64,000 nt of DNA from Gekko japonicus (Eukaryota), in assembly GCF_001447785.1 (NCBI RefSeq), contig NW_015164217.1, positions 111,577 through 175,576 of the forward strand, given 5' to 3'. A program made the position numbers and the translations under genes. The notes below the pieces were generated by a model. The model did no database searches and was not told the origin of the DNA. It saw only the letters and a list, made by a program, of their open reading frames with translations. The stretch's first letter is position 1, and each line of letters begins with the position of its first letter. Of this stretch, positions 1-48,359 are shown piece by piece.

Positions 1-256
1 GGTCTCGGTCACACCTGTCTCGGCCGCCCCCTCATCCTCATCACCCAAGCCCCTCAAGGCATTGACGAATGTGGATTTGCCGGCACCGGACTCTCCAGTG
101 ACAGCAATATCAAGCTGGGCGTTCCAGATGGTCTCCAGGCTGCACTGGATACGCGTCACCACCTCAGAAAGACCTCCCAGCTCATAGGCCTCCTGGATCT
201 CGGCAAGCTCCTTCTCAGTGATCAGTTCAAAGCCTACGCGGGCAGGTTTCAGGACC
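1..256 (-). CDS. IRGQ: IRGQ orthologue, coding exon 2 (partial; continues beyond window start): linker plus start of second IRG GTPase domain
   Basis: Not in the ORF track; translated by hand on the minus strand after acceptor ttcccacag| (AG ends at 257): (R)VLKPARVGFELITEKELAEIQEAYELGGLSEVVTRIQCSLETIWNAQLDIAVTGESGAGKSTFVNALRGLGDEDEGAAETGVTET. G1 GESGAGKS is at 96-73 and is followed by G2 TGVTET. Phase 2 matches the donor at 5810. Aligns with recalled human IRGQ RRLLPPAQDGFEVLGAAELEAVREAFETGGL. Confidence 0.85.
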
Positions 257-290
257 CTGTGGGAATCACAGAATCATAGAGTTGTTAGGG

Positions 291-775
291 ACATAAGAAC
301 ATAAGAGATGCCAATGTTGGATCAGGCCAAAGGCCCATCCAGTCCAACACTCTGTGTCACACAGTGGCCAGAAATACCAGGTGCCATCAGGAGGTCCACC
401 AGTGGGGCCCGGACATTAGAAGCCCTCCCACTGTTGACACCCCCCCAAGCACCAAGAAGACAGAGCATCACTTGCCCCAGAGCCCCTAGCTATACATTGT
501 GGCTAATAGCCACCGATGGACCTCTGCTCCATATGCTTATCTAATTCCCTTTTGAAGCCGTCCATCCTTGTAGCTGCCACCACTTCTTGTGGCAGTGAAT
601 TCCATGTGTTAATCACTCTTTGGGTGAAGAAGTACTTCCTTTTATCCGTTCTAACCCGACCGCCCTGCAATTTCATGGAGATCCCACGGGTTCCTATACT
701 GTGAGAAAGGGAGAAGAATACCTCTTTCTCTACCTGCTCTTTCCCATGCATCATCTTATAAACCTCAATCATGTC
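291..775 (-). mobile_element. CR1 LINE 3' fragment (further pieces at ~9000-9245 and 38218-38412)
   Basis: ORF 503..1039 contains MIEVYKMMHG...KRKYFFTQRVINTWNSLPQEVVAA...FKRELDKHM, typical of the CR1 ORF2 C-terminus; cataagaacataag tail. Confidence 0.85.
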
Positions 776-1863
776 CTCCAAGGTCATCGAGTCCCACCCC
801 CTGCACAATGCAGGAAACCCACAAATACCTCCTCCCCACCCCCAGTGACCCCTGCTCCATGCCCAGAAGATGACAAAAAAACCCAACCCGAATCTCCGGC
901 CAAACTGGCCTGGAAAACAATTGCTTCCTGACCCCAAAGTGATGATCAGCATTTCCCTGAGGGTGTAAGAAAGGGCCACGAGAACTACGCCCTGAGGCAA
1001 CCCTTCCTGCCCTCCGTCTCGTGATCTGCCTAAGTTCACAGAATCCGCATTGCTTCCAGATGGCCACCTAGCCTCTGCTTGAAAACCCCCAAAGAAGAAG
1101 AGCCTCCCGAGGAAGCCTGTGGAACTGCTCTGTCAGGAAGTTTGTCCTAACGTTTAGCCAAAATGTTTAGTGTTTAATGTTTTGAAGAAAGAGTGGAGTG
1201 GATTGTAGGCCAGGATGGATCTCACATGGCTACAATCAGTGATGTGGGCTTGAAGTTTCAAATGTAAGTAAATAATATAGATATGTCAGCAAAATGCCAT
1301 GACCTGGATATCCCAGGCAAGCAAGCCCGAACTCGCCAGATCTCGCAAGCCAAGTGGGGCCGACCCTGGCAAGTATCTGGATGGGAGACTTCCAAGGAAT
1401 ACCAGGGTTGGGAGGCAGAGACAGGCTATCTCTCTGAACCTCTGAACATCCTCCATGCTGAGGAGGAGGAGGAGGAAGAGAAAGAAGAAGAGGAAGAAGA
1501 AGAGATTGGATTTATACTCGTCACTCAGAGTGGCTTACAAACCCCTTCCCCTCCCCACAACAGACACCCTGTGAGGTAGTTGGGGCTGAGAGAGCTATTT
1601 AGAGAACTGCTCTTGAGAGAACAGCTCTGAGAGAACTTGTGACTGACCCAAGGTCACCCAGCAGCTGCACGTGGAGGAGTGGGGAATCAAACTCGGTTTT
1701 CCCATATTAGAGTCTGCCACTCTTAACCACTACACCAAACTGGCCAGAGGTCGCCATGACTTCCAGGCATGGGAGCACAAAAAAGCACAGACAGACACAC
1801 ACATATACAATGCAACCCCCCAAAAAATAAAATGTCAGCAAAAGGAGGTATATATCCACCATG

Positions 1864-2266
1864 CAGGGGTCATTTCCTGCAGGAGTGCACAGGAGCGGAG
1901 CTCCGGCAGTAAAGAGCCCAAGGGGCGGGCACATGCAACAAGCCCCACCCCCTGCTCCCAGCAGCCCTCAGTCAGAGCAAGAAGCAGCCAGGTAAGTTGC
2001 AGAGCCCCCCCGTTCAAAACAGTCCAGTGGCAGCTTTAAGACCAAGTTTTATTCAGGTACAAGCTCTTCCTCCTCTGTGAGGACAGATCTGCATTCCCCC
2101 TCCCAAATAGCTAGCAATCCAAAACAGTCCAGTGGAGCCTGAGCAGTGGGTGTTGCCTTCTGACACACTTCCAGTGATGTCAGGGGATGTGGCATCTGCA
2201 AATAAGTTATGCTAATGAGTTATGCTAATGAGCTCCTGCACCTCTTTTTCTAGGAAATGACCCCTG
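1864..2266. mobile_element. hAT-type MITE, TIR CAGGGGTCATTT (other copies ~12590-13009, 19881-20271, 27744-28128, 49879-50076, 52743-53563, 60461-60870)
   Basis: Terminal inverted repeats plus 8-bp TSD ccaccatg (1856-1863 / 2267-2274); TSD acaacaca at the 19881 copy. Confidence 0.85.
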
Positions 2267-2332
2267 CCACCATGTACAAGCTTGGACCACCCACAAAGAA
2301 GCACAAGAGCCCTGACACAACTATAGACAAAG

Positions 2333-2530
2333 GAGCCATGGTTCAGTGGTAGAACATCTGCTTGGCATGCAGAAGGCCCCAGGTTCAATCCCCGGCATCT
2401 CCAGCTAAAAAGACCAGGTCGTAGGTGACATCATAGCTGATGAAAGGCCCTGGAGAGTCACTGCCAGTCTGAGTAGAGAATATTGATGTTAATGGACTAA
2501 TGGTCTGATTCAGTATTAAGGCAGCTTCAT
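2333..2530 (+). mobile_element. tRNA-headed SINE, Squam2/AnolisSINE2-like (others ~20490-20700, 21250-21460, 39600-39820, 45290-45670)
   Basis: tRNA-like head with A/B boxes (tggttcagtggtaga...ggttcaatccc) and tail gattcagtattaaggcagcttc. Confidence 0.65.
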
Positions 2531-3084
2531 GCCTGCAGATAAACAGACCGTATTTACATACATGAGACAGGAAATTTTCCATGGGAAAATATGGCAGTTT
2601 TCCTCCCCCACATCACTGGCTGCCTTAAGTACTAAAATGACGAAGCTGAGTAAGTGTGATGTTAGTACAGAGGGGTTGGATCCTGGGAATCTCTTCTGCC
2701 AGGTTTTCCTTCAAGAGAGAAAGATTTCCTCCAGCGGAGATTGACTCTTCCTGAGAGACAAAGGCTTCTTCTATTGGAGAAAAGTCTTTCTTTGTTGAAA
2801 GAAGTTTTCCTCTGTTGGCAGAAACCTTACGGGAAGGGCGTCGCAGGATCTAACCCGGTGGCTTCAGGAATGCGGACTCTGATGACTCCGCAAGCCTGGC
2901 TGTTACAGAGACGGCTCTGAGAGAAATACTTTTCAGCTGACGTTGTATCATAATAACTATGTAAAAAATGCTGTTCAACTGGATTGGCCCAAGTGACTGT
3001 AACATGAACATCATCCCTGAGTAGTTCCTTTGGAGCAGACACTGTTTACCTCGGGAGGGGGCACTTTTACCCATCTCAGTCTCA

Positions 3085-3420
3085 AAACGAATTGCAATTG
3101 CTAATGAAGCTCAAGACAATGCATCCACCTGGACTTAATCGAGACCTAGGTTCCCTTTCTCATTACCAGTGCTGATTTCTCCATGCCTACTACCCCTCTG
3201 CATATCACACCTAATCCAATCATGCCCGCTATTGTAATTTACCTGCTACTGTCATTCGCCTGCTGTAGTCATTCGGCATATGAAATCACTCCATTCTCCA
3301 AGACAAAAGGACAGACAGACTAACTTTCTAGCTGTATCTGATGAAGTGAGCAGTGACTCTCGAAAGCTACCCTGCCACAAATTTTGTTAATCTTTAAGGT
3401 GCTACTGGACTCTTGCTCTA
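3085..3420 (+). mobile_element. Penelope-like element 3' fragment
   Basis: Remnant reading ELQLLMKLKTMHPPGLNRDLG, resembling the GIY-YIG C-terminus, followed by ctgatgaagtgagc...cgaaagct...aaggtgctactggactc. Confidence 0.55.
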
Positions 3421-3611
3421 TGCTAAAGTTGCAGGAAAATTAACAGATCCCCCCCCACCGCCGCATTAAAGGTGCATTATTTAGTGTGTGTCAACGCAGC
3501 CTCAGGTAAGTTATTAGGGACTGTAGTCTAACTGTGTTTAGCTTGCATAAACTAGGATCCTGCTATGTAATTTCTGTATCATTTAATGTGTTAAGACTTA
3601 TGCTAGGAGAC

Positions 3612-3870
3612 TCAGTTTGGTGTAGTGGGTAAGAGTGGCGGACTCTAATCTGAGAAAACCGAGTTTGATCCCCCCACTCCGCCACATGCAGCTGCTGGAG
3701 TGACCTTGGGTCAGTCACAAATTCTCTCACAGCTGTTCTCTCAAGGGCAGTCCTCGAAAGAGCTCTCTCAGCCCCACCCACCTCGCAGGGTGTCTGCTGT
3801 GGGGAGGGGAAGGGAAAGGAGATTGTAAACCACTCTGAGTGAAGAGCAGGGTATAAATCCAACCTTTTCT
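3612..3870 (+). mobile_element. Squam3-like tRNA/CORE SINE (many copies: ~1500-1747, 14020-14290, 28230-28495, 29282-29550, 35060-35750, 45905-46310, 50515-50765, 51715-51955, 57505-57780, 58135-58400, 59168-59625, 61803-62290)
   Basis: Recurrent cagtttggtgtagtggttaag...ggactctaatctgggagaacc...ctcagccccacctacctcacagggtgtctgttgtgggg...gggtataaatccaatc unit. Confidence 0.8.
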
Positions 3871-5809
3871 TCTCTCTTATGTCCAGGGCCGCCTGTTGTT
3901 GTTAAATTTTAGACTGTCGCCTAGGGCAACGGCTCGACGAGGGCGCCATTCTGGCCGGCCTCATCCCCTCCTCGCCCCGCACAGGAAGCCTCCCTTGCCG
4001 GCTTCTTGCCCCGTCCCCGGTAAGAGACTCCTCTCTTTTCAACCCCCCAGACAGAAAGAGAAGGAGGTGGGGGGGGAGGCGCGGGGAACAGCCCCCACGG
4101 TCTCTTAGAAGCTTTTTTTGTAGCCTGGCACAGGCCCCCTTCCCCTCCCCTTGAGCGAAACCCGCCCCCCCCTCCCCGCACGTATTTGCAACTCACCCCC
4201 TTGGTCCGCCCGCTGCGGCTCCCGCACCCACCCCTGTNNNNNNNNNNNNNNNNNNNNNNNNNNNNNNNNNNNNNNNNNNNNNNNNNCTGCAACCTGATAT
4301 AGCTAGGGCCGGTCCATTATTGTTAAATTTTAAGCCATCGCCTAGGGCAACGGCTCAATGAGGGCACCATTCTGGCCGGCCTCGTCCCCTCCTCGCCTCG
4401 CACAGGAAGCCTCCCTTGCCAGCTTCTTGCTCCGTCACTGGCAAGAGACTCCCCTCTTTGCAGCCCCCCAGAGAGAAAGAGAAGGAGGCAGGGGGGACAG
4501 GCGCGGGGAACAGCCCGGGACGACGGAAAAGTGCAGCTCACCCTCTGTCGTCCCCTCGGCCTGCCCGCTGCGGCTCCAGCACCTGCCCCCATCCTGCACC
4601 AGGACGGGGGGCGCCAGAATGTATCCTCGCCTAGTGGGCAAAAAAACTTGGGGCCATCACTGCTTATGTCTACGCTTCGCTTCAGTTCTGTTTTTAGATT
4701 TCTGATTGGTTCTACAACCTTAAACCCATCGTGCTGTTTAATGAATACCTCATCCTGTCAACTGTACTGACTCACTCTTGGTAATCCGCCTTGAATCCAA
4801 GAGAGAAAGGCGGACTATGAACGATGTCATTTAAAACAAAATGAATACCGCCAAATCTCCACGAGTTTCCCAAACCCTAAGGTCAACCACGGGATGGCCC
4901 CTACTCAGACCAAAACTGCGCAGGAAGAAAGAAGACGTTTAGCTCTTGCGTGTGCTTCTGTTGATCCGAACCTACTCCCCAGATCTTGGCAGCTAAGCAG
5001 GGTCAACTCTAGCAAGTACTTGGATGCAATGCTCCCTCTAAGCTGTGGAGTCTTGTGAGCAAAAATCCTACTTTGTGAGCTAGTGGCATTAAAGTTGTGA
5101 GCGAGCGATTTGGCTGCTGCGTAAATTAGTTTGCTCTGCAGCCATCCTCCCTGAGCTAAGACCAAAATGTGTGAGCTGGAGGCTAAAAAACTGTGAGCTA
5201 GCTCNNNNNNNNNNNNNNNNNNNNNNNNNNNNCAGCAATGTTCCCTCTAAGCTGTGGAGTCTTGTGAGCAAAAATTCTGCTTTGTGAGCTCCTGGCATTC
5301 GAGTTGTGAGCGAGCAATTTGGCTACTGCATCAATTAGTTTGCTCTGGAGCCATCCGTCCTGAGCTAAGACAAAAAGGTGTGAGCCGGAGGCTAAACAAC
5401 TGTGAGCTAGCTCACACTCACTCGGCTTAGGTCACACTAATTCGGCTTAGGTCACACTAATTCGGCTTAGAGGGAACACTGACGACCAGTGTTCCCTCTA
5501 AGCCGAATTAGTGTGACCTAGCTCAGTTTTTGAGCCTCCGGCTCACACCTTCTTGACTTAGCTCAGGAAGGAGGGCTCCAGAGCAAACCAACTTATGCAG
5601 TAGCCAAATTGGCTCGCTCACAACTTTAGCGTCAGGAGCTCACAAAGTCGGATTTTCGCTCACAAGTCTCCACAGCTTAGAGGGAGGAACCCACCCACCC
5701 CCACACTTGTAATTAGGACCATGGCCACAGTCCCATCCTGTTTCCCCCAAACGCAGCCCCCGCAAAGCCCTGCCGAAGGTTCCCGCAGCGTCCAAGCCAT
5801 TGTACTGAC

Positions 5810-6402
5810 CTCTCGTATATTTCTACATCTTTCAGCAGTGTTTCTCGCAGTTGGGGGCAGTCCAGCGCGTAGGGCTCAAACGCGGAGATCAGGAACACAA
5901 AGGGCTCCCCGAGGCCGTGGGCCCCGAGAGACTCAGCACAGACGCCCCGCAGAGCGTTGAGTACCTCCGACCGGTCGTAGCGTTCGCCCATCAGCCGCTT
6001 GAGGGTGTGCACCTCCAGGTCGGCCTTGGTCCGGGCAAAATAGACTTTCTTGCCAGCCACTCGGACCTCCCCGGCAAGGCGGGCGTGGACCTCATCGAAC
6101 TTGCCATCCGTCACCATGACAAACACGTCCGCCTCCCCTAGCCATCGCTCCGCTTGTCCTTCGCCCTCCAGTTCCAACTCCCATATCAGTAAGTTGGGGT
6201 GGGAGGGATCGGGGTACATGACGGGACCCCCCGGTTTAGGTAGGGCACCCACGGGCGCGGATCCAACATCCCCTTCTGTCATCCCTCGCACGGCGTTCAG
6301 GAAGGCGGACTTGCCCACACCGGGCTTGCCTATGACAACCACGGAGACATCCCCCTGCTCAGGGGAACCTGAGGTGGAGCTCTGAGGGGTCTTGAGAGGC
6401 AT
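5810..6402 (-). CDS. IRGQ: IRGQ orthologue, coding exon 1: N-terminal IRG-type GTPase domain
   Basis: Within ORF 5713..6510. Acceptor tttcag| at 6427, ATG at 6402 (MPLKTPQ...), donor GAG AG|gtcagt at 5810 (593 nt, phase 2). Motifs: QGDVSVVVIGKPGVGKS (recalled human IRGQ QGDVTALFLGPPGLGKS), WELE in place of WDLPG, RTKAD (G4), LISAF (G5). Confidence 0.85.
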
Positions 6403-7877
6403 TCCGGATGCAGGAAAAGGGCGTCCCTGAAAGATGCTGCGGAAACATGAGAAAAGGGAAAATGTGAAGCGGAGGCAGAGGTTTTGCCCGGAGGCTAGCA
6501 TTAAACACAACGAACTTTGCCAGATTATATTTTACGCAGGGCTCTTTCTGTAGAAAAAAACCAGCAGGAACTCATTAGCATAATAGGCCACACCCAACAG
6601 CAGGAACTCATTAGCATATTGGGCTACGCCCCTGACAGCACAGCTCATTGGCACATTAGGCCACACCCCCATGTTACCAGAAGTGTGCTCATCCAGCCAC
6701 ACCCACCTTTTGCTTCTTATTCTGTTTACCCAGGGCTTTTTTTGTAGCAGGAACTTCTTTGCATGTTAGGCCACACACCCCTAATGTAGCCAATCCTAAT
6801 GAGTTCCTGCTGTTGAGTGTGGCCTATTATGCTAATGAGTTCCTGCTGGGCATGGCCAATTTGGGAGCCAGCCGGAACGCCGTTCCTGTGCGTTCCTGCC
6901 CAAAAATAGCCCTGATTACGCCAATTTTCTATCAAGCTGCCAAAATGGAACTAGTTAGCCTCCAGCCGTGAACAACCTGCTCTAATACTTTCTACTAATT
7001 CCTCTGCTTGCTGCTGAAGATGAGACACATATCTGCCCCCCCCAATCTAGAGCAAACCAAGCGCTATCAGCTCCAACCCACTGTTTGTTTGCACCATGCT
7101 AAACAAAGCGGTAGAAAGGGAAGGAAAATATACGCCCTTGATTGGGGCAGAGCCTTAAAATAAATCACTCAGTGGCTATCTAAGCACCGTTAGCCTTTTA
7201 AAACAGGCCTTGGCCAATTTTCTTTGGCTTTACGAGCTGCCCTAAAAGATTTAGGAGCCAGATTTATTTTTCAGCCTTTTCATATTTTCATAACCATGTG
7301 TTGTAATCATGGCTACCGCAAAACCTAATTCTAAACTCCCCATAATTTCTTGTCCTTTTTAAAAGCGATCACAAGCAATGCTCCCTCTAAGCTGTGGAGC
7401 CTTGTGAGCAAAACTTCTATCTTGCGGGCTATTGGCATTAAAGCTGTGAGCGAGCGATTTGGCGACTGCATAAATTACTTCGCTCTGGAGCCACCCTCCC
7501 TGAGCTAAGACAAAAATGTGTGAGCCAGAGGCTAAAAAACCGTGAGCTAGCTCACACTCACTCAGCTTAGAGGGGACACTGAATTCACAAGTGGTGTCGA
7601 AGGAGAGTTTTATGGATCCCGTGGATTACCCAAAAGACAAATCAGGGGGTTCTGGATCAACTCAAGCCTAAACTCTCCCTAGAAGCTAGAACGACTGAAC
7701 TGAGGTTATCATACTTCGCATTATGAGAAGACAAGAGTCACTGGAAAAGATAATGATGCTAGGAAACGTTGAAGGCCGAAGGAAAAGAAGACCCAGCATG
7801 AGACGGATTGACTCAATCAAGGAAGCTACAGCCCTCAGTTTGCATGACCTAAGTGAGGTTTGTTCATGGATAGGAGC

Positions 7878-8234
7878 AGGGCTTTTTTTGTAGAAAAGGC
7901 CCAGCAGGAACTCATTAGCATAATAGGCCACACCCAATAGCAGAAACTCATTCGCATATTAGGCCACACCCCCATGTTACCAGAAGTGTGGTCATCCAGC
8001 CACACCCACCTTTTGCTTCTTATTCTGTTTACCTTGTTTGTTGTCAAAACCCAGGGCTATTTTTGTAGCAGGAACCCCTTGCATGTTAGGCCACACACCC
8101 CTAATGTAGCCAATCCTAATGAGTTTCTGCTGTTGGGTGTGGCCTGTTATGCTAATGAGTTCCTCCTGGGCGTGGCCAACTTGGGAGCCAGCCGGAACTC
8201 CGTTCCTGCGCGCTCCTGCCCAAAAATAGCCCTG
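7878..8234. mobile_element. hAT-type MITE, TIR CAGGGCT (copies 6537-6914, 8506-8875, 18384-18779, 53044-53439)
   Basis: cagggctttttt...aaaaatagccctg with 8-bp TSD gataggag; internal ctcattagcat repeats. Confidence 0.85.
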
Positions 8235-8312
8235 GATAGGAGGTTTTGGAGGACAGAGAGAAGTCAGAGAGAACTTAACGGACACGTCAAAGGTGTGTAC
8301 ATAAAAACGAAG

Positions 8313-8500
8313 TGCCCTGAGCTGAATAGCCCAGGCTAGCCCAATCTCCTCCGATCTCAGAAGCTAAATAGGGTCAGCCTTGGTTACTACTTGGATGGGG
8401 AGACCACCAAGGAATACCAGGGTCACAACGCATAGGCAGGTGATGGTAAACCACCTCCGAACGCCTCTTGTCTTGAAAACCCTACGGAGTCACCGTTGAG
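8313..8500 (+). mobile_element. 5S rRNA-headed SINE (5S-Sauria-like; others ~1300-1450, 4965-5027, 31840-32230 split by a MITE, 52505-52660)
   Basis: Degenerate 5S-like core gcccaatctcctccgatctcagaagctaaatagggtcagccttggttactacttggatggggagaccaccaaggaatacc followed by a non-5S tail. Confidence 0.75.
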
Positions 8501-9426
8501 TCAACCAGGGCTTTTTTTTTAGAACTCATTAGCATAATAGGCCACACCCAATGGCAGAAACTCATTAGCATATTAAGCCACACCCCTGACAGCACAGCTT
8601 ATTAGCACATTAGGCCACACCCGCCATGTTTTCAGAAGTGTGCTCATCCAGCCACACCCACCTTTTGCTTCTTATTCTGTTTACCTTGTTTGTTGTCAAA
8701 ACCCAGGGCTCTTTTTGGAGCAGGAACCCCTTTGCATGTTAGGCCACACACCCCTAATGTAGCCAATCCTAATGAGTTTCTGCTGTTGGGTGTGGCCTGT
8801 TATGCTAATGAGTTCCTCCTGGGCGTGGCCAACTCGGGAGCCAGCCGGAACTCCGTTCCTGTGCGTTCCTGCCCAACAGTGACGTGATGGCAAAAACAAA
8901 ACCAGTTGTCACCGCACACACAGAAAAAGCTAACCTCCGTCTCTCACCTGAAGGTGCTTTGTATTTCTACTGACAATCAACAAGGGGCCTTTACTAGAAT
9001 AAGAACATAAGAGCACAGGAGAATCTAATGCTGGATCAGGCCAATGGGCCCATCCAGTCCAACACTCTGTCACACAGTGGCCAAAAACACCAGGTGCCAC
9101 CAGGAGGTCCACCCGTGGGGCCAGGACACCACAAGCCCTCCCACTGTTGCCCCCCTTCCCAAGCACCAAGAAGACAGAGCATCACTTGCCCCAAACCGAG
9201 AGTTCCTCTCTATGCCTTGTGGCTAATAGCCACTGATGGACCTCTGATTCAAAACGACTGCAGAAAATATCAGGCGCCGCAATGGAATTTCTAGCTGCTA
9301 TCAAGCCCTGTTTTAAAACTTAAATGTCAGATCGGTAGCCATCTTAAGCCTGCAGCAGCAAAAAGCCTTTAAGGTGGCACTGGACTCCTGTTTAATTCGG
9401 CCGCCGCTACTAGTGATGATGTAAAA

Positions 9427-9780
9427 GGAGCTGCGGTGGCTCAAGTGGTTAAGACGCTGAACTGCAGGCTGTGGAAGGTTAGTAGTTCAGCAGTTCGAGA
9501 CCCGGGTGCCGCATGATGGAGTGAGCTCCCGTCTCTAGTTCCAGCTCCTGCCAACCTAGCAGTTCGAAAGCAAGAAATTGCAAGTAGATAAATAGGTACC
9601 ACTTCGGTGGGAAGGGAACAGCGTTCTGTGCGCCTTGGTGTTTAGTCATGCCAGCCACATGACCACGGAAACGTCTTCGGACAGCGCTGGCTCTTCGGCT
9701 TGGAAACGGAAATGAGCACCACAACCCTAGAGTCGGATTCGACTGGCTTTCGAGCAAGGGAACCTTTACCTTTACCTTAC
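9427..9780 (+). mobile_element. Sauria SINE (others 16606-17143 minus, 26516-27415 split, 31058-31410, 41111-41437)
   Basis: ggagctgcggtggctcaagtggttaag...agcagttcgaaagc...gtagataaataggtacc...gaacctttacctttacc, the diagnostic Sauria SINE body and (ACCTTT)n tail. Confidence 0.85.
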
Positions 9781-10960
9781 TAGTGATGTGCTTCTTAAAA
9801 AGGCTTGAGTACTTTACCACCAACTCATCTCCTTCGGCTTTGAAACGGAGATGAGCACCGCAACCCTAGAGTCGGATTCGACTGGCTTTCGAGCAAGGGA
9901 ACCTTTACCTTTTACATCTCCTTGAATTGTACTTTCCCAGTACCTGACGCTGACACCCTCATGCTTTGGAGAGATGCTTCCTGTTTGACTAGCCGACAAC
10001 AACAACAACAACATAGTCTAATCCAACCCAAGCAAGCCAATTACACAAAACCTACCATTTATTTCAGCATCCAAGATTCAGAGTTTGATAGATTAAAGAA
10101 GGAAAGGGCAAAAAAGAAACACAGGGGAATTATTAGTGATATTTTGTTCCTAAGCGTGTAGCCACGGACCAGGATTAATATCATGGTGCCATGTTAAATG
10201 AATGCTAAGAAGGCATAATTGAAAAGGACTGACACAACAAATCAGCAAAACGGGCGTCCATAATTCAGCAAAATTGGCTGCCCGGCGGTGACAGGTACAA
10301 GAGCTTTTCGGAGATTAAATTGTTCAGCTAACGGCTAGGCGAACAGGAAGAACTTCAGGTAATCAGGAATTCTTTGTTACGTGGGGCCTCCTTGACAAAT
10401 GGTAATGAACACCGTCTCTCTCCCCGAGGCAGATTTATCAGCCTCAGCAGAAAGTAACACTTCCAAGGTCACGGCGGTCCCTGCCAGCGGAGGCAGAACT
10501 CTAATAACAGCCCAAACTCATGACCATGTTACCAGTTTGGAACTCTGACTCAAATGTTTATCACTCCTCCCTGGGACGGACCGTTTCAGGTGGGTCGCCG
10601 TGTTGAACTGAAGCAACAGGATGACGTTCTGAGTCCGGTGGCACCTTTAAGTCCGACAAAGTTTAATTCTGGGGATAAACTTTCGTGTGTATGCCAGGCC
10701 CGTCGCTACAGTGGGGCGTTTAGGGGCCCTGCCCCCTTAATTAAAAACCCCGCCCCACAACTAGCCATGCTAGAAAACTAATTTTTGAGGAGAGATCCCC
10801 CCCAAAAAACCCAACTGCTGGCAGTAGCCAAGAGAATAACTTTGTAGGTCTTGCCCTCGGGCTTCCCTTTCCCTCCCACTGTGGATTTTTTTTGCAGGGG
10901 ATCATGGGAAAAGACAGCTCAGTAGGCATTTAATTACCTTCAGAAGGCATCTGTATAAGG

Positions 10961-11796
10961 CTCAAGAAGCAACAGTTAGAACCGGATATGGAACAACTGA
11001 TTGGTTTAGCATAGGAAAAGGAGTACGACAAGGATGTATATTGTCACCTTGCTTATTTAATATATATGCAGAGTACATCATGCGAAATGCTGGCCTGGAT
11101 GAATCACAAGCGGGAATTAAGATTGCTGGGAAAAAGATCAACAACCTCAGATATGCAGACGATACCACTCTAATGGCAGAAAGTGAAGAGGACCTTAAGA
11201 GCCTCTTGCTCAGGGTCAAAGAGGAGAGCGCAAAAGTGGGCTTCAAGCTCAACATCAAGAAAACTAAGATCATGGCATCCGATCCCATCACTTCTTGGCA
11301 AATAGAAGGGGAAGTCGTTGAAGTAGTGAAAGATTTCACGTTCCTGGGATCCCAGATCACAGCAGCCATGAAATTAAAAGACGCCTGCTCCTTGGGAGGA
11401 AAGCGATGGCGAACCTAAACAGCATGATAAAAAGTAGAGACATCACCCTGCCAACAAAAGTCCGCATGGTCAAAGCAATGGTATTCCCAGTAGTCATGTA
11501 TGGCTGCGAGAGTTGGACTATAAGGAAGGCCAAGCACTGAAGAATAGATTCTTTTGAACTATGGTGCTGGAGAAGACTCTTGAGAGTCCCTTGGACTGCA
11601 AGAAGAACAAATCAGTCAATCCTCAAAGAAATCAACCCTGACTGTTCCCTGGAAGGCCAGATAATGAAACTGAAGCTCAAATACTTTGGCCACCAAATGA
11701 GAAGGGAGCACTCACTGGAGAAGACCCTGATGCTGGGAAAGATTGAAGGTCAAAGAAGACGGGGACGGCAAAGGATGAGATGGTTAGACAGTGTCA
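10961..11796 (+). mobile_element. RTE-BovB LINE fragment (RT C-terminal half, frameshifted); other fragments 33895-34311 minus, 51283-51451 minus, 61350-61787 plus
   Basis: SPCLFNIYAEYIMRNAGL...NLRYADDTTLMAESEEDL...VPWTARRTNQSILKEINPDCSLEG...RGRQRMRWLD; (CAA)n tail in 3'-complete copies; frameshift near 11360. Confidence 0.92.
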
Positions 11797-14700: not shown

Positions 14701-14855
14701 AAAAGACAACCGCAATGCAAGGCCTGTGCAATGCCGTTTCCTGGCGTCCAAGCCGCGTTCTCCCCACCCCATTTCGCTGACCAAAACCCAGCCTTGCTGG
14801 TAGACAGAAGGAAGCAATGGGGTATTTTCATGCATAAGCCGGTAGCAAGACGCGG

Positions 14856-15358
14856 AAATGTCAGCGGATACAATTTGCTATCCTACCAAACCCAAAAGAT
14901 TCAAATTTGGGCCCAGAGACCCTAATGGAAAACCCATTCCGCATTTTTATTGCAACTCTACTTGTGCCCTAATCTTTTCCAATGGAGCCCAGGCAGGTCA
15001 ATAGCATTCCTGGCTCCCATTATTTCCAATGGGCCTTCCGGCGTCTCCCATTGTTTCCAATGGGCAATCCTGTCCTTCCTTTTAGTACATCCCCGAAACG
15101 GGGATCTACGAAATGTCAGCGGATGCAATCTGCTATCCTACCAAACCCAAAAGATTCAAATTTGGGCCCAGAGACCCTAATGGAAAACCCATTCCGCGTT
15201 TTTATTGCAACTCTACTTGTGCCCTAATCTTTTCCAAGGGAGCCCAGGCAAGTCAATTGGCAATCCTGGCTCCCATTATTTCCAATGGGCCTTCCAGCGT
15301 CTCCCATTGTTTCCAATGGGCAGTCCTGTCCTTCCTTTTAGTACATCCCCGAAACGGG
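14856..15358. repeat. Direct tandem duplication, ~255-bp unit, 2 copies
   Basis: aaatgtcagcggat...catccccgaaacggg starts at both 14856 and 15111 with few substitutions. Confidence 0.9.
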
Positions 15359-15369
15359 CTATTAGGAAT

Positions 15370-15760
15370 AGGGCGGATCGGGCGCGGATGGAGGGCGCTC
15401 TGCGACCGCACCCGACGGCACCTATTCCAGGGCGCAGAGAGACCCACCCGCCCCTTTTAATCCTCTCCGCACCTGCTAACCAGCGACCCCCGTCGGCTCC
15501 AGCGGATTACCGGCGCCGCTCCTCTTTGTCTACCGATCGCCGCCCGGAAACGTCAGAAGGAGGCGGCTTCGGAGGAAGAGGAGGAGCCGCGTCCTTCTGC
15601 CTCCGACCCCCGTAGGTTTCTGTTTCCCCGGCTGCGCTCAAGGGGCGTCTCTTGCGCGCTACCCCGGGGGAGGCAGGAGGGGATCTGCGCCAAAAGGATC
15701 GGCCGGCCGCACCGGGCGGGCAAAGGTAGGGGTCGCCAACCTCTCCGGGTGGGTAAATGG
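15370..15760. promoter_or_regulatory. CpG island between the two divergent IRG genes (candidate promoter/non-coding first exon)
   Basis: CpG-dense unique sequence with GC boxes (GGGCGG at ~15371), ETS-like CCGGAA at ~15544 and ISRE-like GGTTTCTGTTTCCC at 15615-15628. Confidence 0.6.
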
Positions 15761-18700
15761 CAAAAGATCCACGAGCAGGTATAAAGAAAACCAAAATATT
15801 AGTAATTTGGTGGTGGTGGTTTGAACCTCCAGGCGGGGCCTGGAGATCTCCGGGCGGCAGAGATCAGCTCCCCTGGAGGAAAGGGGTGCTTTGGTCGCTC
15901 CCCTGCCCGAACCTTGCCTCGCCCCGGAAGGCGTTGTCAACCTCCAGGTGGCACCAGGAGATCTCCCGCGATTGCAATTGAGCTCCAGGCGACCGGGATC
16001 AGTTCCCCTGGAGGAAATGGCTGCCTTGGAGGGTGGACTCCGTGATACTGTAGACAGGTGGGGTCCCTGGTTCCCCAAATCCCCCCTCCCCAGGCTCCCC
16101 ACACACCCCCCCCAAATCTCCAGGTATTTTCCAGCCCATTGCTGGCATCCCTATCCTCAGGTCTCCAGGAATCTGCCAACCCTAGGTAAAGGATATGTCA
16201 GGAAAGGGGGTGGCTGGGGGCCAGAACCTCAGTGGGGAGGGGGGTTAGGTAGGGGAAAGGGGCTCCAGAGCCGGGACACGCCTGGGTCCTTTTGGAGAAA
16301 AGGGGTTGGGCGGGGCTCTCTCCTGGGTTCTCAGGTTTGCTGGTGGAGGGAGACAAAAGGAGTTGTTTTCTTTCATTTCCCAGGCCAGCGCAGCAGCAGG
16401 AAATACTAGCCGGGTTTTTTTTGGTTCTTGGAAGGGGGTCATGGTTGGGTGGTTTGGTTTTACTTCCTCTAGAAAGGGCGGATTCTAAGGTTCCCCCAAA
16501 CTCTTCCCTTTCCGGGCTGGTCTCTCTTCCCTTTAGCTAGGTCTCTTTCCTTTGAGCTCTGTTAGGTTGGAAGTCGGCTGGCGGAGCTTAAAACTACAGT
16601 GAGGTAAAGGTAAAGGTTCCCTTGCTGGAAAGCCAGTCGAATCCGACTCTAGGGTTGCGGTGCTCATCTCCGTTTCCAAGCCGAAGAGCCAGCGCTGTCC
16701 GAAGACATTTCCGTGGTCATGTGGCTGGCATGACTAAACACCAAGGCACATGGAACGCTGATCCCTTTTCACCGAAGTGGTACCTATTTAAAAGGTAAAG
16801 GTAAAGGTTCCCTTGCTCGAAAGCCAGTCGAATCCAACTCTAGGGTTGTGGTGCTCATCTCCGTTTCCAAGCCGAAGAGCCAGCGCTATCCGAAGACGTT
16901 TCCGTGGTCTGTGGCCGGCATGACTAAACACCAAGGCGCACGGAACGCTGTTCCCTTTTCACCGAAGTGGTACCTATTTATCTACTTGCAATTTCTTGCT
17001 TTCGAACTGCTAGGTTGGCAGGAGCTGGAACTAGAGACGGGAGCTCACTCCGTCATGTGGCACACTCGGGTCTCGAACTGCTGAACTACCGACCTTCCAC
17101 AGCCTGCAGTTCAGCATCTTAACCACTTGAGCCACCGCAACTCCAAAACTACAGTACCCAGCCGATTTCATCCTACCCATTACCTACCCAGCTGCCTCAA
17201 TGCCCAATTAATACACAGGTGCTTTAAAAAAAAAATGTAATGGGTTTCTGGGAAGAGCTGGTGGCTGAAGCTCTTGGAGGGAGTGTTGCAAACGTTCCCT
17301 CTAAGCTGTGGAGTCTTGTGAGCAAAAATTCTACTTTGTGAGCTACTGGCATGAAAGTTGTGAGCGAGGGATTTGGCTACTGCATAAATTAGTTTGCTCT
17401 GGAGCCCTCCTTCCTGAGCGAAGACAAGAATGTGTGAGCCGGAGGCTAAAAACCTGTGAGCTAGCTCACACTGACTCAGCTTAGAGGGAACACTGGTGTT
17501 GACCCCCCCCTCTTGGGGCTGCGTTTGCATTTATCTATAGCCCCCTTTTCTCCCTGGTTGGGACTAAAGCAGCTTAGAAGATCGTTTTCCCCTCTCCCAG
17601 TGCTCCTGCAACCACAACCCTGTCAGGTAAGCCAAAGGGGGAGTTTGTGACTGGCCCAAGATCACCCTGCGAGCGTCTGTGAGAGAAGCGGGGATTCGAA
17701 TCTGGGTTACCCAGTGTCCATGACTGTATCTGCGACATCACACCGGCTTCCAGGGTTGACCTGAAGGACTAGTAACTCGGGGCTTTCTCGCATGCAGTTT
17801 CCTGAAATGGAACTGGATCGAGTGAAAACAGGGCTTTGCTGCCGTTGAGACTGCAGATTTGGCTTAGCTCGCCTTCCGATTTTTTAAAACAAAAGAACCC
17901 ACCACCTATCTTGGTGGCAGAGGGAGGAGACTTACCACATTCTGCTTTTTAGCAGAGCAACAGGCAGGAATCCGACAGGTCCAGTATGCACTTTGTGACT
18001 GCAGTGTTCCCTCTAAGCTGAGTTAGTGTGAGCGACCTCACCGTTTTTTAGCCTCCGGCTCACACGTTTTTGTCTCAGCTCAGGAAGGGACGGCTCCCGA
18101 GCAAACTAATTGATGCAGCAGCCAAATGGCTCGCTCACAACTTGAATGCCGGCAGCTCACAAAGTAGAATTTTTGCTCACAAGTCTCCGCAGCTTAGAGG
18201 GAGCCTTGGCTGGGACTGCCTCTCTCTGGCACTGCAAAAAAGAATCTCGGTGCAGGAAGATGAACAGGAAAGCAGGCAACAAAAGAGAGAAGAGAAGGCT
18301 TGAGAAACAACTGTCCGGGACTCCCTATGGGGCCTCACCTGACACGTGGAAAAAACTCTCTCTCTCTCTCTCTCTCTCTCACCCAGGGCTATTTTTGGGC
18401 AGGAACGCACAGGAACGGAGTTCCAGCTGGCTCCCAAGTTGGCCACGCCCAGCAGGAACTCATTCGCATAATAGGCCACACCCAACAGCAGGAACTCATT
18501 AGGATTGGCTACATTAGGGGTGTGTGGCCTAACATGCAAAGGAGTTCCTGCTACAAAAAAACCCCTGGGTTTTGACAACAAACAAGGTAAACAGAATAAC
18601 AAGCAAAAGGTGGGTGTGGCTGGATGACCACACTTCTGGTAACATGGGGGGTGCGGCCTAATGTGCTAATGAGCTGTTCTGTCAGGGTGTCGCCTAATAT

Positions 18701-18839: not shown

Positions 18840-19522
18840 ATGGCCTGTTTGGACGAATCACAGCTGAGAAACCTCAAGGCCCAGTACGAGGCCCAGAATG
18901 CCAAGGGCACTGCCTCCCAAATCCAGGAGCTGGTGGATTGCGTTACCACCCTCAAGATAAAGGTTGGCTTCTTGGGGGGGCGCGGAGCAGGGGTGAGCAC
19001 GCTGGTCCAGGCTCTGTTGGATAAACCTCGCCGGGTGAACGATCCCTGGGCTTACTTCCGGGAGACTCCAGAGCCCACCAAACAGCTGGAGGCGCACGTC
19101 CATCCGACCTACCCCAACCTCACCCTGTGCGACCTCCCCGGCTTCGAAGCGTCCGAGAAGCCGGCCGCGTATCTCAAGCGCTTGGGCGACCTGAGCAAGT
19201 ACAGCTGCTTCGTGGTGGTGGTGAGCGGAAGCTTGGGAGACACCCACCTGCAGGTCATGAAGGCCGTCAAGCAGAAGGGGAAGACCTGCCTCCTGGCGCG
19301 CACCAAAGTGGACTTGGATCTGCACACGGCCAAGAGGCGGCTCCGCTTCAAGTACAACCCCGGCGAGCGACTGGGCCTGATCCGGAAGGAGCTGACGGAG
19401 ACGTTGGCCAACCACCGGATGGACACCAAGAAGGTCTTCCTGGTGTCGGGGCTAGAGGCGGAGAAATACGAGTTCAGATACTTTGAGGACGGCTTGGAAG
19501 GGGAGGTGCTCAGCTTGAAGAG
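18840..19522 (+). CDS. Two-domain immunity-related GTPase (IRG / interferon-inducible GTPase 5-like), coding exon 1: degenerate GTPase module
   Basis: Within ORF 18624..19526, whose first ~50 codons are MITE sequence. Acceptor tctccccgcag| at 18831, ATG at 18840, donor AG|gtgagg at 19522 (683 nt, phase 2). Motifs GGRGAGVS (G1, K to V), HPTYPNLTLCDLPG (G3), RTKVD (G4), FLVSG (G5). Confidence 0.85.
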
Positions 19523-21721: not shown

Positions 21722-22889
21722 GAGCCATGGCGGGGACCTGGAAGACGTGACCGCCGTGAGCCCAAAGAAGATCGAAGAGCTGTACAACATCTGCCAGAGC
21801 GGCAGCTTGGCAGAAGTCCCGGGTGTGATCTCCTCGGCCCTGGAAGAGCCCTCGCAGATCCGTCTGGACGTCGCCGTGATCGGAGAAGCCGGTTGCGGGA
21901 AGTCCTCGCTGGTCAACGCCCTGAGAGGCGTGGCCGCTGGAGAGTCGGGTGCGGCCCCCACTGGGGTGACCGGGACGACGAGGAAAGCCACCGTCTACCC
22001 GCTTCCGCTCGTCCCCTACCTGTACCTCTGGGACCTGCCGGGAGTCGGAGTGACGGAGGAGGACGTGAGGCACCTGGACCTCAGCCGCTACGACTTCTTT
22101 CTCCTGGTGGCCTCCGAGCGCTATAAGCACGCCCACAGCTGCTTGGCCAGGGCCATCGCCGCAGCCGGGAAGGAGGCTTTCTTCGTACGAAGCAAGATAG
22201 ACGTGGACCTGGAGACCCGGCCCGGGAGCCAGCCCATCCCTAAAGAAGAGCTGCAGGAACAGGTGCGGGAGAGCTGCGCGGAGGCCCTGAAGAAGGACGG
22301 CGTCCTCTCCCCACAGGTCTTCCTGGTCTCCAGCCTCGCCCAGGAGGCCTACGATCTCCCCCTCCTCCAGGAAGCCCTGAGCCGTAGCGCTCCCGACCTG
22401 AAGAGGAAAGCTCTGCGGAGAGCCATCCCGACCGTCCTCTCCCGGCTGGTGAGGCGGAAGTCCAAAGTGCTGATGAAGGACGTGTGGGTGAAGGCCCTGG
22501 AGGTCTGCCTCTGCTGCGTGGAGAAGCCGGACCAGGACGTGACCAAGAACCTCATGACCAACATCGCCAGCTTCTGCATAGACCTTGGCCTGGACCAGGA
22601 GTCCTTGGCGCTCACCGCACAGGTCACCGGCAAAGCACTCAGGCTGCTTCAGGATCAGATCCGAAGCCCCTTCGCTAAGCCGCTGGACTCCGAATACGTG
22701 CTGAGTCTCATCGTCAAGCCGGTCTCGCTGTTCACGTGGGCTTGGGACTACGTGCCGTTCCACGGCCGGGGGACCAACCCGGAACCCGAGATCTCCTTCG
22801 AGTCCACTTATGGGATGTTGAAGCAAGTCGTGGTGGAACTGTCGGAGGATGCGGAGCGGGTGCTTCACGCAGCGCTTGTGGAAGGATAG
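21722..22889 (+). CDS. Two-domain IRG, coding exon 2: complete IRGC-like GTPase domain plus C-terminal helical region
   Basis: Acceptor ttttcttcctag| at 21721, in frame with ORF 21747..22889 via AG+G=Arg. Motifs GEAGCGKS, TGVTGTT, WDLPG, RSKID, FLVSS; TAG at 22887-22889. Joined CDS is 1851 nt = 616 aa. Confidence 0.9.
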
Positions 22890-36987: not shown

Positions 36988-37505
36988 CTAGAGCTCCCCC
37001 CGGGCGTGGCGGATGTAGTGTTCGTGCAGCCCTGCCTCGTGACTGAAGCTCTCTCCGCATTCCATGCAGGAGTAGGGACGGGAGGGAAGCAACTCCTGCG
37101 TCTGCTGGTGGAAAGCCTGGTGCCGACGCAGGTTTGAAAGCTGGCGGAAGCTCTTGCCGCAGTCCGGGCACTGATGCGGCAGGCTGTGGCCAGCGGCGTG
37201 GCCCAGGCGGTGACGCTGGTAGTTGGCCAACTGGCTGAAGCAGCGGCCACAGTCGGGGCAGTCAAAGGTAGGCTGCAAGCAGTCCGTGCAGTCGGAGGGG
37301 CGGGCGGGGGCGTGGCCCCGCTGGTGGCAGATGAGGGCACGCGAGCTCTCGAAGGCCTTGTTGCAAATAAAGCAGATGAAGAGGGTGTCGCGCAGGTTGG
37401 CCTGAACAAAGTCCTCTGGGTGTTCCCGCTTCATGTGCCGTGCCTTGAACTTCTCATCCGGGAATGTGATCAGGCAGTGAAAACACTGGTTTGCGCCCAA
37501 GCTGT
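36988..37505 (-). CDS. ZNF576: Zinc finger protein 576, last coding exon (5 C2H2 fingers)
   Basis: ORF 36988..37500: CFHCLITFPDEKFKARHMKREHPEDFV...LHEHYIRHARGEL closely matches recalled ZNF576 (CLITF..HMKREHP.DFV; HYIRHARGEL). Acceptor ctctccag| at 37506, phase 1. Confidence 0.9.
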
Positions 37506-38960
37506 CTGGAGAGGGGGAGAAAGACAGAGAGTCAAGAAGGGCTCGACGGAACCAGCGGTCTAACCTGCAGTCACCTCTGTAAAATGGGATGGGTAAAGCA
37601 CTGTGAAATGGTCCACTCTCCTCGTCATCAGCTTTTCATTTGGACACACAGTGGTTTCACAACCCTCAGACAATTGGCTGCTTTTAAATCAGCCATATAT
37701 ACAACTATTGGAGGGAACAATGGGGGGACCTCTCTGCTTTTAACTGATGCTGCTCGGGNNNNNNNNNNNNNNNNNNNNNNNNNNNNNNNNNNNNNNNNNN
37801 NNNNNNNNNNNNNNNNNNNNNNNNNNNNNNNNNNNNNNNNNNNNNNNNNNNNNNNNNNNNNNNNNNNNNNNNNNNNNNNNNNNNNNNNNNNNNNNNNNNN
37901 NNNNNNNNNNNNNNNNNNNNNNNNNNNNNNNNNNNNNNNNNNNNNNNNNNNNNNNNNNNNNNNNNNNNNNNNNNNNNNNNNNNNNNNNNNNNNNNNNNNN
38001 NNNNNNNNNNNNNNNNNNNNNNNNNNNNNNNNNNNNNNNNNNNNNNNNNNNNNNNNNNNNNNNNNNNNNNNNNNNNNNNNNNNNNNNNNNNNNNNNNNNN
38101 NNNNNNNNNNNNNNNNNNNNNNNNNNNNNNNNNNNNNNNNNNNNNNNNNNNNNNNNNNNNNNNNNNNNNNNNNNNNNNNNNNNNNNNNNNNNNNNNNNNN
38201 NNNNNNNNNNNNNNNNNCCCTACCTTCTCTCTCCCATGCATAATCTTGTAAACCTCGATCACGTCACCCCTCAGTCGTCATTACTCCAAGCTAAAGAGCC
38301 CCAAGCACTTTAACCTTTCTTCATAGGGAAAGTGTTCCAGCCCTTTGATCATTCTAGTTGCCCTTTTCTGCACTTTTTCCAATGCTGTAATATCCTTTCT
38401 GAGGTGTGGTCACCTAGCACACGTAGCCTCCATAGCCAAAGGGAAAAAAAGAGAGGTGGTTAATGGAAGGGACAGAGTCCAACTGCCCCGGAGGAGCTTG
38501 TCCTCCTAGTGACAAGGGATGCATGCTGTCATGTGGTTTTATAGTTGCTGCAATGACATCTATTACCTCAAAATGGAAGTCACACCAACCTCCCACGATC
38601 AACCAGTGATACTCTAAAGTTTGGGACCTCTTTATAATGGAGAAAATCAGAGACCACATAAGACAAGCCAATTCTAGATCAGTTCACCTCGGTTCACATC
38701 TAAAATGGCTACCTTTTCTAGAACACATATTTTCTAATGACCTCCAACCTCACAAGCAAATATATTTTCAACTACTTTTTATGTGAGCTAACTTCCTCAG
38801 TTTGAATACTCTCTATAACCTCATAACGCACATTTGGTTTAGTTGTGGTACACACCTCAGTTTTGAAATTAGTTTAATTTAACTTGACATCGTTTTTTTC
38901 AAGCAATACTAAATGAAACTTACTAGCTGTATTGTTAAGTATACAGATCACAGTACTCAC

Positions 38961-47680: not shown

Positions 47681-48249
47681 CTACAGCTCTCCGCGCGCAT
47701 GGCGCATGTAGTGCTCATGCAGTTCCGACACCAGGCCAAACTCCCCCGGGCACTCGGTGCAGTGGTACGGTCCATCAGCCCCGTCTGCGTCGTGCTCGCC
47801 GTTGGCCGCCCTCGGGGCAGGGGCAGGAGCAGGAGGGGGCTTGTTGCGGGGCGGGGCTGGAGGGCTGCGGCGCCAGCTGTGTTCGCAGCGGTGCGCCTCC
47901 AGCGAGGAGGGAGATGCGAAGCCCAGGCCGCACTCGGCGCAGATGTAGTGGAAAGCGCCGCCCCAGCTGGGAGGCGGAGCCGTTCGGCCTTCCCGGCTCT
48001 CGGGGTTGCCGGAAAGGGTCAGGGTCGGCGGCTTGGAGGAGGAGGAGCCGCTGTGTGGCCGCTTGCGCCCCACGTGGTAGCTGCGGTGCACCTTCAGGGC
48101 TCGGGACGTGCCGAAGCCGCGGCCACATTCGGGGCATTCGTGCCATTCGGGGCTGGGCGCCTGCGAAGAGCTCAGCCGATCGTGCCCGATCTCACCGCCT
48201 TCATCCACTGGTTCCCCTACGGCTCCGTGCGACTCTTTGCTTTGGGGGC
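47681..48249 (-). CDS. ZNF428/ZNF576-like C2H2 zinc finger protein, last coding exon (3 fingers)
   Basis: ORF 47681..48307: CPECGRGF..HRSYH, CAECGLGF..HRCEH, YHCTECPGEFGLVSELHEHYMRHARGEL*. Acceptor gtctcactag| at 48250, phase 1. AATAAA on the minus strand at 47506-47511. Confidence 0.85.
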
Positions 48250-48359
48250 CTAGTGAGACAACCAGAGGGGGGGAAACACAGTGAAGCAAGACACAGCTGT
48301 GATCCACCCGGTCAGCCCCTGCAGGACAGCTCCAGCAGCCACGTGGGGAACCTGTCTAC

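Follow-up and report, generated by a model that had tools for sequence, protein, structure and literature searches.

Results

A two-domain IRG gene at the start of the gecko window

The window, i.e. the whole stretch of 64,000 nt that was analysed and in which all coordinates are given, begins inside a two-domain IRG gene that we refer to as gene A. Its product comprises 598 aa with two IRG domains and is encoded by two coding exons (lengths summed). The minus strand of positions 1-256 encodes VLKPARVGFELI...LDIAVTGESGAGKSTFVNALRG...TGVTET in a frame that is open to the window edge, and the translation matches Pfam IIGP with an E value of 6e-20. This second exon starts at base 256, preceded by an AG acceptor at 258-257, and the first exon (6402-5810) runs from an ATG start to a GT donor, ending in phase 2. 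The locus contains the following features:

1..256, minus strand: 5' portion of gene A exon 2, covering the LIR1-bearing linker and, from a full IRG unit, the N-terminal helices, the P-loop and switch I
1..18, minus strand: domain-2 switch I, TGVTET; equivalents of Irga6 Thr102, Gly103 and catalytic Glu106 (alignment to 1tq6)
73..96, minus strand: domain-2 G1/P-loop, GESGAGKS; G, K and S invariant in 25 of 25 intact orthologues
220..231, minus strand: LIR1 core FELI (F207-I210), corresponding to residues 186-189 of human LIR1 (phmmer and tenrec alignment)
257..5809, minus strand: phase-2 GT-AG intron within Arg198; junction matches 598-aa database orthologues
5810..6402, minus strand: coding exon 1, encoding residues 1-197 as a G domain that lacks helical extensions; Pfam IIGP E 5e-33
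6133..6135, minus strand: Glu90, equivalent of human IRGQ E74; aligns to tenrec IRGQ E74
6307..6330, minus strand: domain-1 P-loop, GKPGVGKS; GxxxxGKS also kept in therian IRGQ domain 1
15251..16000: CpG island between genes A and B
18840..19522 and 21722..22889, plus strand: gene B, a tandem IRG gene divergent to gene A, with the same phase-2 Arg intron
36988..37635 and 47681..48355, minus strand: two C2H2 zinc-finger exons upstream of gene A, with near-identical C-terminal ends

The exon junction of gene A occurs in one frame in transcript-sized Logan contigs of gecko, another lizard and newt, which supports the splice in relatives. Among the reads listed for positions 1-16000, which were dominated by repeats, none joined 256 to 5810, and the RNA depth over exon 1 (~3.5 in X21 and 1 in X22) was not above that of unique intronic bins; the reads therefore give no evidence of expression or splicing.

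Directly beyond the window start, the scaffold consists of N. A genome search recovered an unplaced contig, C59410 (L001), with 284 of 284 bases identical to window positions 1-284. This contig extends the exon 2 frame through WDLPG (G3), RTKVD (G4), LSSF (G5) and the helical domain to a stop codon at 1230-1232, with none earlier. We infer that C59410 belongs to gene A from the overlap, from the single-copy status of domain 1 (the next match in the genome search is at 37%) and from the orthologue P0001, whose contiguous 598 aa are 97% identical to the gene A product. A degenerate or broken exon 2 is ruled out by the canonical motifs and the lack of a premature stop on C59410. The database model P0122 joins the first 279 residues of gene A to downstream Ly6/uPAR exons (L021-L023), a fusion across the N run that is an annotation artefact.

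Genomic neighbourhood and gene B

Ly6/uPAR exons lie 11-21 kb downstream of gene A, and the C2H2 exons on its upstream side are reminiscent of ZNF576. The human gene order is presumably PINLYP-IRGQ-ZNF576, and we assume XRCC1 to be a synteny marker alongside PINLYP and ZNF576. The arrangement is suggestive of a neighbourhood shared with mammalian IRGQ; searches with XRCC1_N and SMG8/9 yielded no synteny, the XRCC1_N matches being located on other contigs.

In gene B, the domain-1 P-loop lacks the Lys, and domain 2 keeps GKS and lacks the Glu106 equivalent. Orthologues are found in turtles, and an alligator copy has His for the P-loop Lys, which makes gene B a candidate sauropsid pseudo-GTPase. 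Adjacent accession numbers suggest that the two genes are neighbours in turtles as well, and no counterpart of gene B was found among the five therian proteins examined. The CpG island between the genes is a possible shared promoter. Elsewhere in this genome, ~60 IRG G-domain matches (61-63) are distributed over contigs C595, C1857, C9100, C9040 and others; many of these are paired frames of 230-260 aa plus 410 aa, which constitute a large tandem-IRG expansion in geckos.

Orthology of gene A to IRGQ

When koala IRGQ was compared with this genome, gene A was the top one of 24 matches; it was also the best match for residues 180-326 and the sole match for residues 3-174. All six IRGQ queries ranked a gene A exon first among 20 ORFs of this genome, and all five therian IRGQs scored highest on the profile of the gene A clade (50-131 bits, versus 33-73 bits on single-domain, 16-31 on gene B and 10-35 on expanded-tandem profiles). 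Therian IRGQ fell within the amniote clade of gene A in a 43-row domain-2 tree (100/100), and a grouping of therians with gene B was rejected (AU p=0.030); together with the profile scores, this rules out gene B as the IRGQ orthologue. In a tree of both G domains (214 domains, two redundant rows dropped), domains 1 and 2 of gene A each occupied a branch of their own, apart from IRGC-like proteins, expanded tandem IRGs and gene B.

The architecture of gene A consists of an N-terminal G domain, LIR1 and an IRG unit. From lungfish to amniotes its clade is single-copy and slowly evolving, with domain-2 identities of 76-97% for squamates, tuatara and turtles, and 60% for a caecilian; identity to P0001 across lepidosaurs and turtles is 81-83% in the domain-2 G region and 61-74% in domain 1. 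Four newt and lungfish orthologues (P0123, P0146, P0131 and P0145) have a third G domain, which is degenerate and precedes the other two.

Direct comparison with the human protein gave a faint signal. Residues 14-210 of gene A align end to end, weakly, with residues 3-189 of the human IRGQ chain 8q6q_C, and the domain 1 match (E 1.5e-7 with the single sequence, 3.5e-4 with a profile) is weaker than that to ordinary IRGs; gene B and the expanded tandems had no comparable match to this chain among the matches listed. A junction profile, built from 14 orthologues and run over 1.84 billion representative proteins, returned 19 matches, not all of them orthologues and 8q6q_C not among them; ten names were looked up and include IRGQ (koala, tenrec, crocodile) and IRGQ-like (lungfish, newt). 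Word-indexed searches that started from the gecko sequences did not reach any mammalian IRGQ. In the ESM Atlas, the whole protein placed an IRGQ cluster 14th of 30, which is a lead only; no IRGQ cluster was among the matches listed for the N-terminal part, and no 8q6q chain among those listed by Foldseek. NCBI names the reptile orthologues of gene A 'interferon-inducible GTPase 5-like', which suggests that a reverse best match from gecko to mammal would return IRGC, and some members from lungfish, newt, frog and crocodile already bear the name IRGQ in databases. The IRGQ identity put forward in the original prediction is thus supported by gene A being the best match of mammalian IRGQ in the genome, by trees and by architecture. 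Resting on the latter two and on a one-way best match, we regard orthology as very probable.

A complete nucleotide-binding site in domain 2

G1, switch I, G3, G4 and G5 of domain 2 are all canonical, and the GKS-class motif set (GxxxxGKS, DLPG, TKxD and G5) is present in full. The second-domain P-loop had been noted to be intact, and GESGAGKS ... TGVTET is indeed read in the minus-strand frame; G3 and G4 are likewise intact in the rest of the exon on C59410, where a premature stop is absent. For human IRGQ domain 2, supplement 7 of PMC1297648 gives AGKADVGLV and WTVPLG with no clear G4, and the former bears out the human G1 that the original prediction had quoted. The same paper defines an IRG quasi-GTPase by a long last exon without GTP-binding motifs (PMC1297648); the motifs of domain 2 being canonical, the gene A product is therefore not one. 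An AlphaFold model shows both G domains folded, connected by a low-confidence linker (200-212), and domain 2 adopts a full IRG fold (Foldseek E 3e-27, TM 0.76 by target). With its full set of GTP-binding motifs, domain 2 is expected to function as an enzyme; we consider GTPase activity likely on the basis of its sequence.

The residues of the Irga6 catalytic interface, whose roles are described in PMC3042988, are largely retained: E77, T102, G103, E106, T108, R159 and K161 are kept, and Ser132, Asp164 and Asn191 are changed to Thr, His and Ser, respectively. The same paper reports that D164H impairs Irga6 (PMC3042988). His occupies the Asp164 position in 24 of the 25 intact orthologues, which counts against an active enzyme, and is also usual there in non-mammalian single-domain IRGs. 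It is one of three GMS-type substitutions, and domain 2 might bind GTP, hydrolyse it poorly and serve as a GMS-like regulator (a GDI or scaffold) for the many other gecko IRGs rather than as an enzyme that activates itself. Slow evolution and a single copy, unlike the expanded IRG clusters (61 matches), would fit such a regulator. However, the equivalents of the G1 Lys, Glu106 and Arg159 are kept, unlike in GMS proteins, and the His is common to single-domain IRGs of coelacanth, lungfish, salamander and reptiles; a regulatory role of this kind is therefore improbable.

Domain 1 and the LIR1 motif

Domain 1 of gene A keeps G1 and G4. Its switch-I threonines are absent and WEL replaces DxxG; with switch I and G3 degenerate, domain 1 is therefore likely a pseudo-GTPase already. 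In human IRGQ, LIR1 lies at 186-189 and E74 is a key GABARAPL2 contact (PMC13172515). The phmmer alignment to 8q6q_C ends at gene A residue 210 and chain residue 189, and F186-L189 and E74 of tenrec IRGQ align with F207-I210 and E90 of the gecko protein. The LIR1 core is kept in 46 of 50 orthologue rows and the Glu at the E74 site in 47 of 50; LIR1 is retained in all 18 frogs despite their decayed domain 2. The four caenophidian snakes aligned (P0018, P0020, P0022 and P0023) all have Pro or Phe at LIR1 position 4 with domain 2 intact, which is possibly a reverse loss. A second LIR, sought as an acidic [WFY][DE]x[LIV] motif between G4 and G5, was found in none of 45 non-mammalian rows. WEVL within an acidic insert between G4 and G5 is confined to therians (three of five models), and we take it to be human LIR2 (421-424).

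These observations make the gecko protein a putative ATG8 binder, a role to which we attach a fair likelihood. Alternatively, gene A could be an ordinary tandem immune IRG with no autophagy role, whose LIR-like letters simply begin the N-terminal helix of the IRG unit, mammals having co-opted them later. A similar [FY]-x-x-I does occur at the start of some single units (P0047, P0141), and the motif has been lost in the four snakes. An ISRE-like 11-mer at 15616, in the upstream CpG island, would also fit an immune IRG, but with such a site in 14 of 100 shuffles it does not exceed chance. Moreover, Trp and the E74-site Glu persist from caecilian through therians, within a domain of otherwise 25-40% identity, and the persistence of LIR1 in frogs with a decayed domain 2 likewise speaks against a helix start of no function in autophagy. 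We therefore judge this alternative unlikely and retain ATG8 docking as the preferred reading.

Repeated loss of the domain-2 P-loop

The 50 orthologue rows were obtained by targeted searches and are a non-random sample; they derive from an alignment of 53 rows, of which two non-orthologues and a duplicate crocodile model were dropped. Of the 50, 25 retain all four scored motifs (19 lepidosaurs, 3 turtles, caecilian, newt and lungfish). The P-loop is lost in the other 25, comprising all 18 frogs, all five therians, Anolis sagrei and Crocodylus porosus, the latter two being one species each and the crocodile model partial. The lesions differ among lineages. A tree of 412 columns, from which the domain-2 G region was left out, forces at least three changes, and a single change was obtained in 0% of 200 bootstrap trees. 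One clade of all degenerate rows is rejected (AU p=0.004), and the site decayed in several lineages rather than by one single loss. The gecko gene had also been viewed as a preserved intermediate between IRGC-like enzymes and the pseudo-GTPase. This part of the prediction does not hold: the intact site, retained by most lepidosaurs and by turtles, a caecilian, a newt and lungfish, represents a widespread ancestral condition rather than a rare intermediate. A search for monotreme, crocodilian and bird orthologues found none and returned the 18 frog orthologues and the alligator gene B protein instead, which is not evidence of loss.

One clade that unites the degenerate amniotes is not rejected (p=0.06), and in the domain-2 tree anole, crocodile and therians cluster together at 96/99, which counts against independent losses. 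Both results would be expected from hidden paralogy, in which an early amniote duplication left an intact copy in geckos and turtles and a degenerate one in mammals, crocodile and anole, making gene A a sister paralogue of IRGQ with one amniote P-loop loss; the locus does duplicate, as gene B attests. However, the degenerate amniote rows are the richest in Gly/Ala/Arg/Pro (0.38-0.53 vs ~0.27), and once mammals are left out, crocodile falls with turtles and anole with Sceloporus, i.e. at their species-tree positions, both at 99/99, and a grouping of anole with crocodile is rejected (p=0.041). Sauropsid monophyly is not rejected (p=0.24). When the long anole and crocodile rows are removed instead, mammals move to frogs, which indicates long-branch attraction; within the gene A clade, the position of therians shifts and tracks the longest branch. 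Given that the lesions also differ and that no second copy was found in this genome, we consider hidden paralogy quite improbable. Four separate losses, in frogs, therians, Crocodylus and Anolis, remain the best reading, and two of them are firm.

Discussion

Human IRGQ has so far been regarded as lacking GTPase activity, and its origin has been unclear. It could not be placed in a tree in PMC1297648, and it clears misfolded MHC class I and contributes to the initiation of autophagy (PMC13172515). Our full-text literature search found no account of an intact non-mammalian IRGQ; some key papers beyond this search may bear on novelty. What is newly seen here, as judged from coding sequence, is an IRGQ orthologue whose second GTPase domain is intact and represents the ancestral state of a known gene.

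The explanation that we favour, and hold to be likely, is that the gecko IRGQ orthologue combines a GTP-hydrolysing domain 2 with a degenerate domain 1 and a linker LIR that dock GABARAPL2 as in humans. Its product would be a GTP-switched autophagy adaptor: domain 2 would bind and hydrolyse GTP, dimerise via the IRG catalytic interface and load onto membranes like Irga6, and the N-terminal module would recruit ATG8. The ATG8-binding module would then be old, and the GTPase switch would have become dispensable several times (in frogs, therians, Crocodylus and Anolis); in therians, an acidic insert that carries a second LIR would later have arisen between G4 and G5, both decayed. We give an even chance to the full history, in which IRGQ arose in lobe-finned vertebrates as a GTP-switched receptor, a dead G domain for ATG8 docking being fused to an active IRG enzyme, and underwent at least four independent deaths of the site (in frogs, therians, crocodilians and anoles) with the ATG8 dock kept, LIR2 being added in mammals and geckos and turtles still being switchable.

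The intact orthologue names the clade from which human IRGQ came and indicates that many reptile and frog genes called 'interferon-inducible GTPase 5-like' are IRGQ orthologues. The gene A product is a protein for a direct test of nucleotide control over an autophagy receptor, and one gene offers several independent transitions from enzyme to pseudo-enzyme. If our reading is true, geckos and turtles keep the switchable form, and a natural series of convergent pseudo-enzyme origins exists in one gene.

Among known systems, the closest is mammalian IRGQ (FKSG27; PDB 8Q6Q), a quasi-GTPase and GABARAPL2/LC3B autophagy receptor (PMC1297648, PMC13172515). In both proteins a bare N-terminal G domain precedes LIR1 and a complete IRG unit, which a single long last exon encodes; they share the conserved E74 and LIR1 positions, and they belong to the same clade. 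Their neighbours appear to come from the same families (Ly6/uPAR downstream and C2H2 upstream), with a presumed human order of PINLYP-IRGQ-ZNF576. In contrast to mammalian IRGQ, G1-G5 are intact in domain 2 of gene A, G4 is preserved in domain 1 as well, and neither an acidic insert nor a LIR2-like motif is present between G4 and G5.

Similar to the GKS-class IRGs Irga6, Irgb6 and Irgb10 (1TQ6, 7VES, 7C3K) and to IRGC, domain 2 of gene A has the full fold, all motifs and most catalytic-interface residues. Unlike these proteins, gene A carries an extra degenerate G domain in front and His for Asp164, is single-copy and slowly evolving, and has no interferon-response element above chance. With the tandem IRGs, such as mouse Irgb2-b1 and zebrafish irgg-irgq1 (PMC1297648), and with the expanded squamate tandems, gene A shares two units joined by splicing. 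Its first unit is degenerate and helix-less and its second intact, whereas zebrafish irgg-irgq1 is the reverse; in the expanded gecko tandems both P-loops are mostly retained, and these proteins make up a clade separate from gene A.
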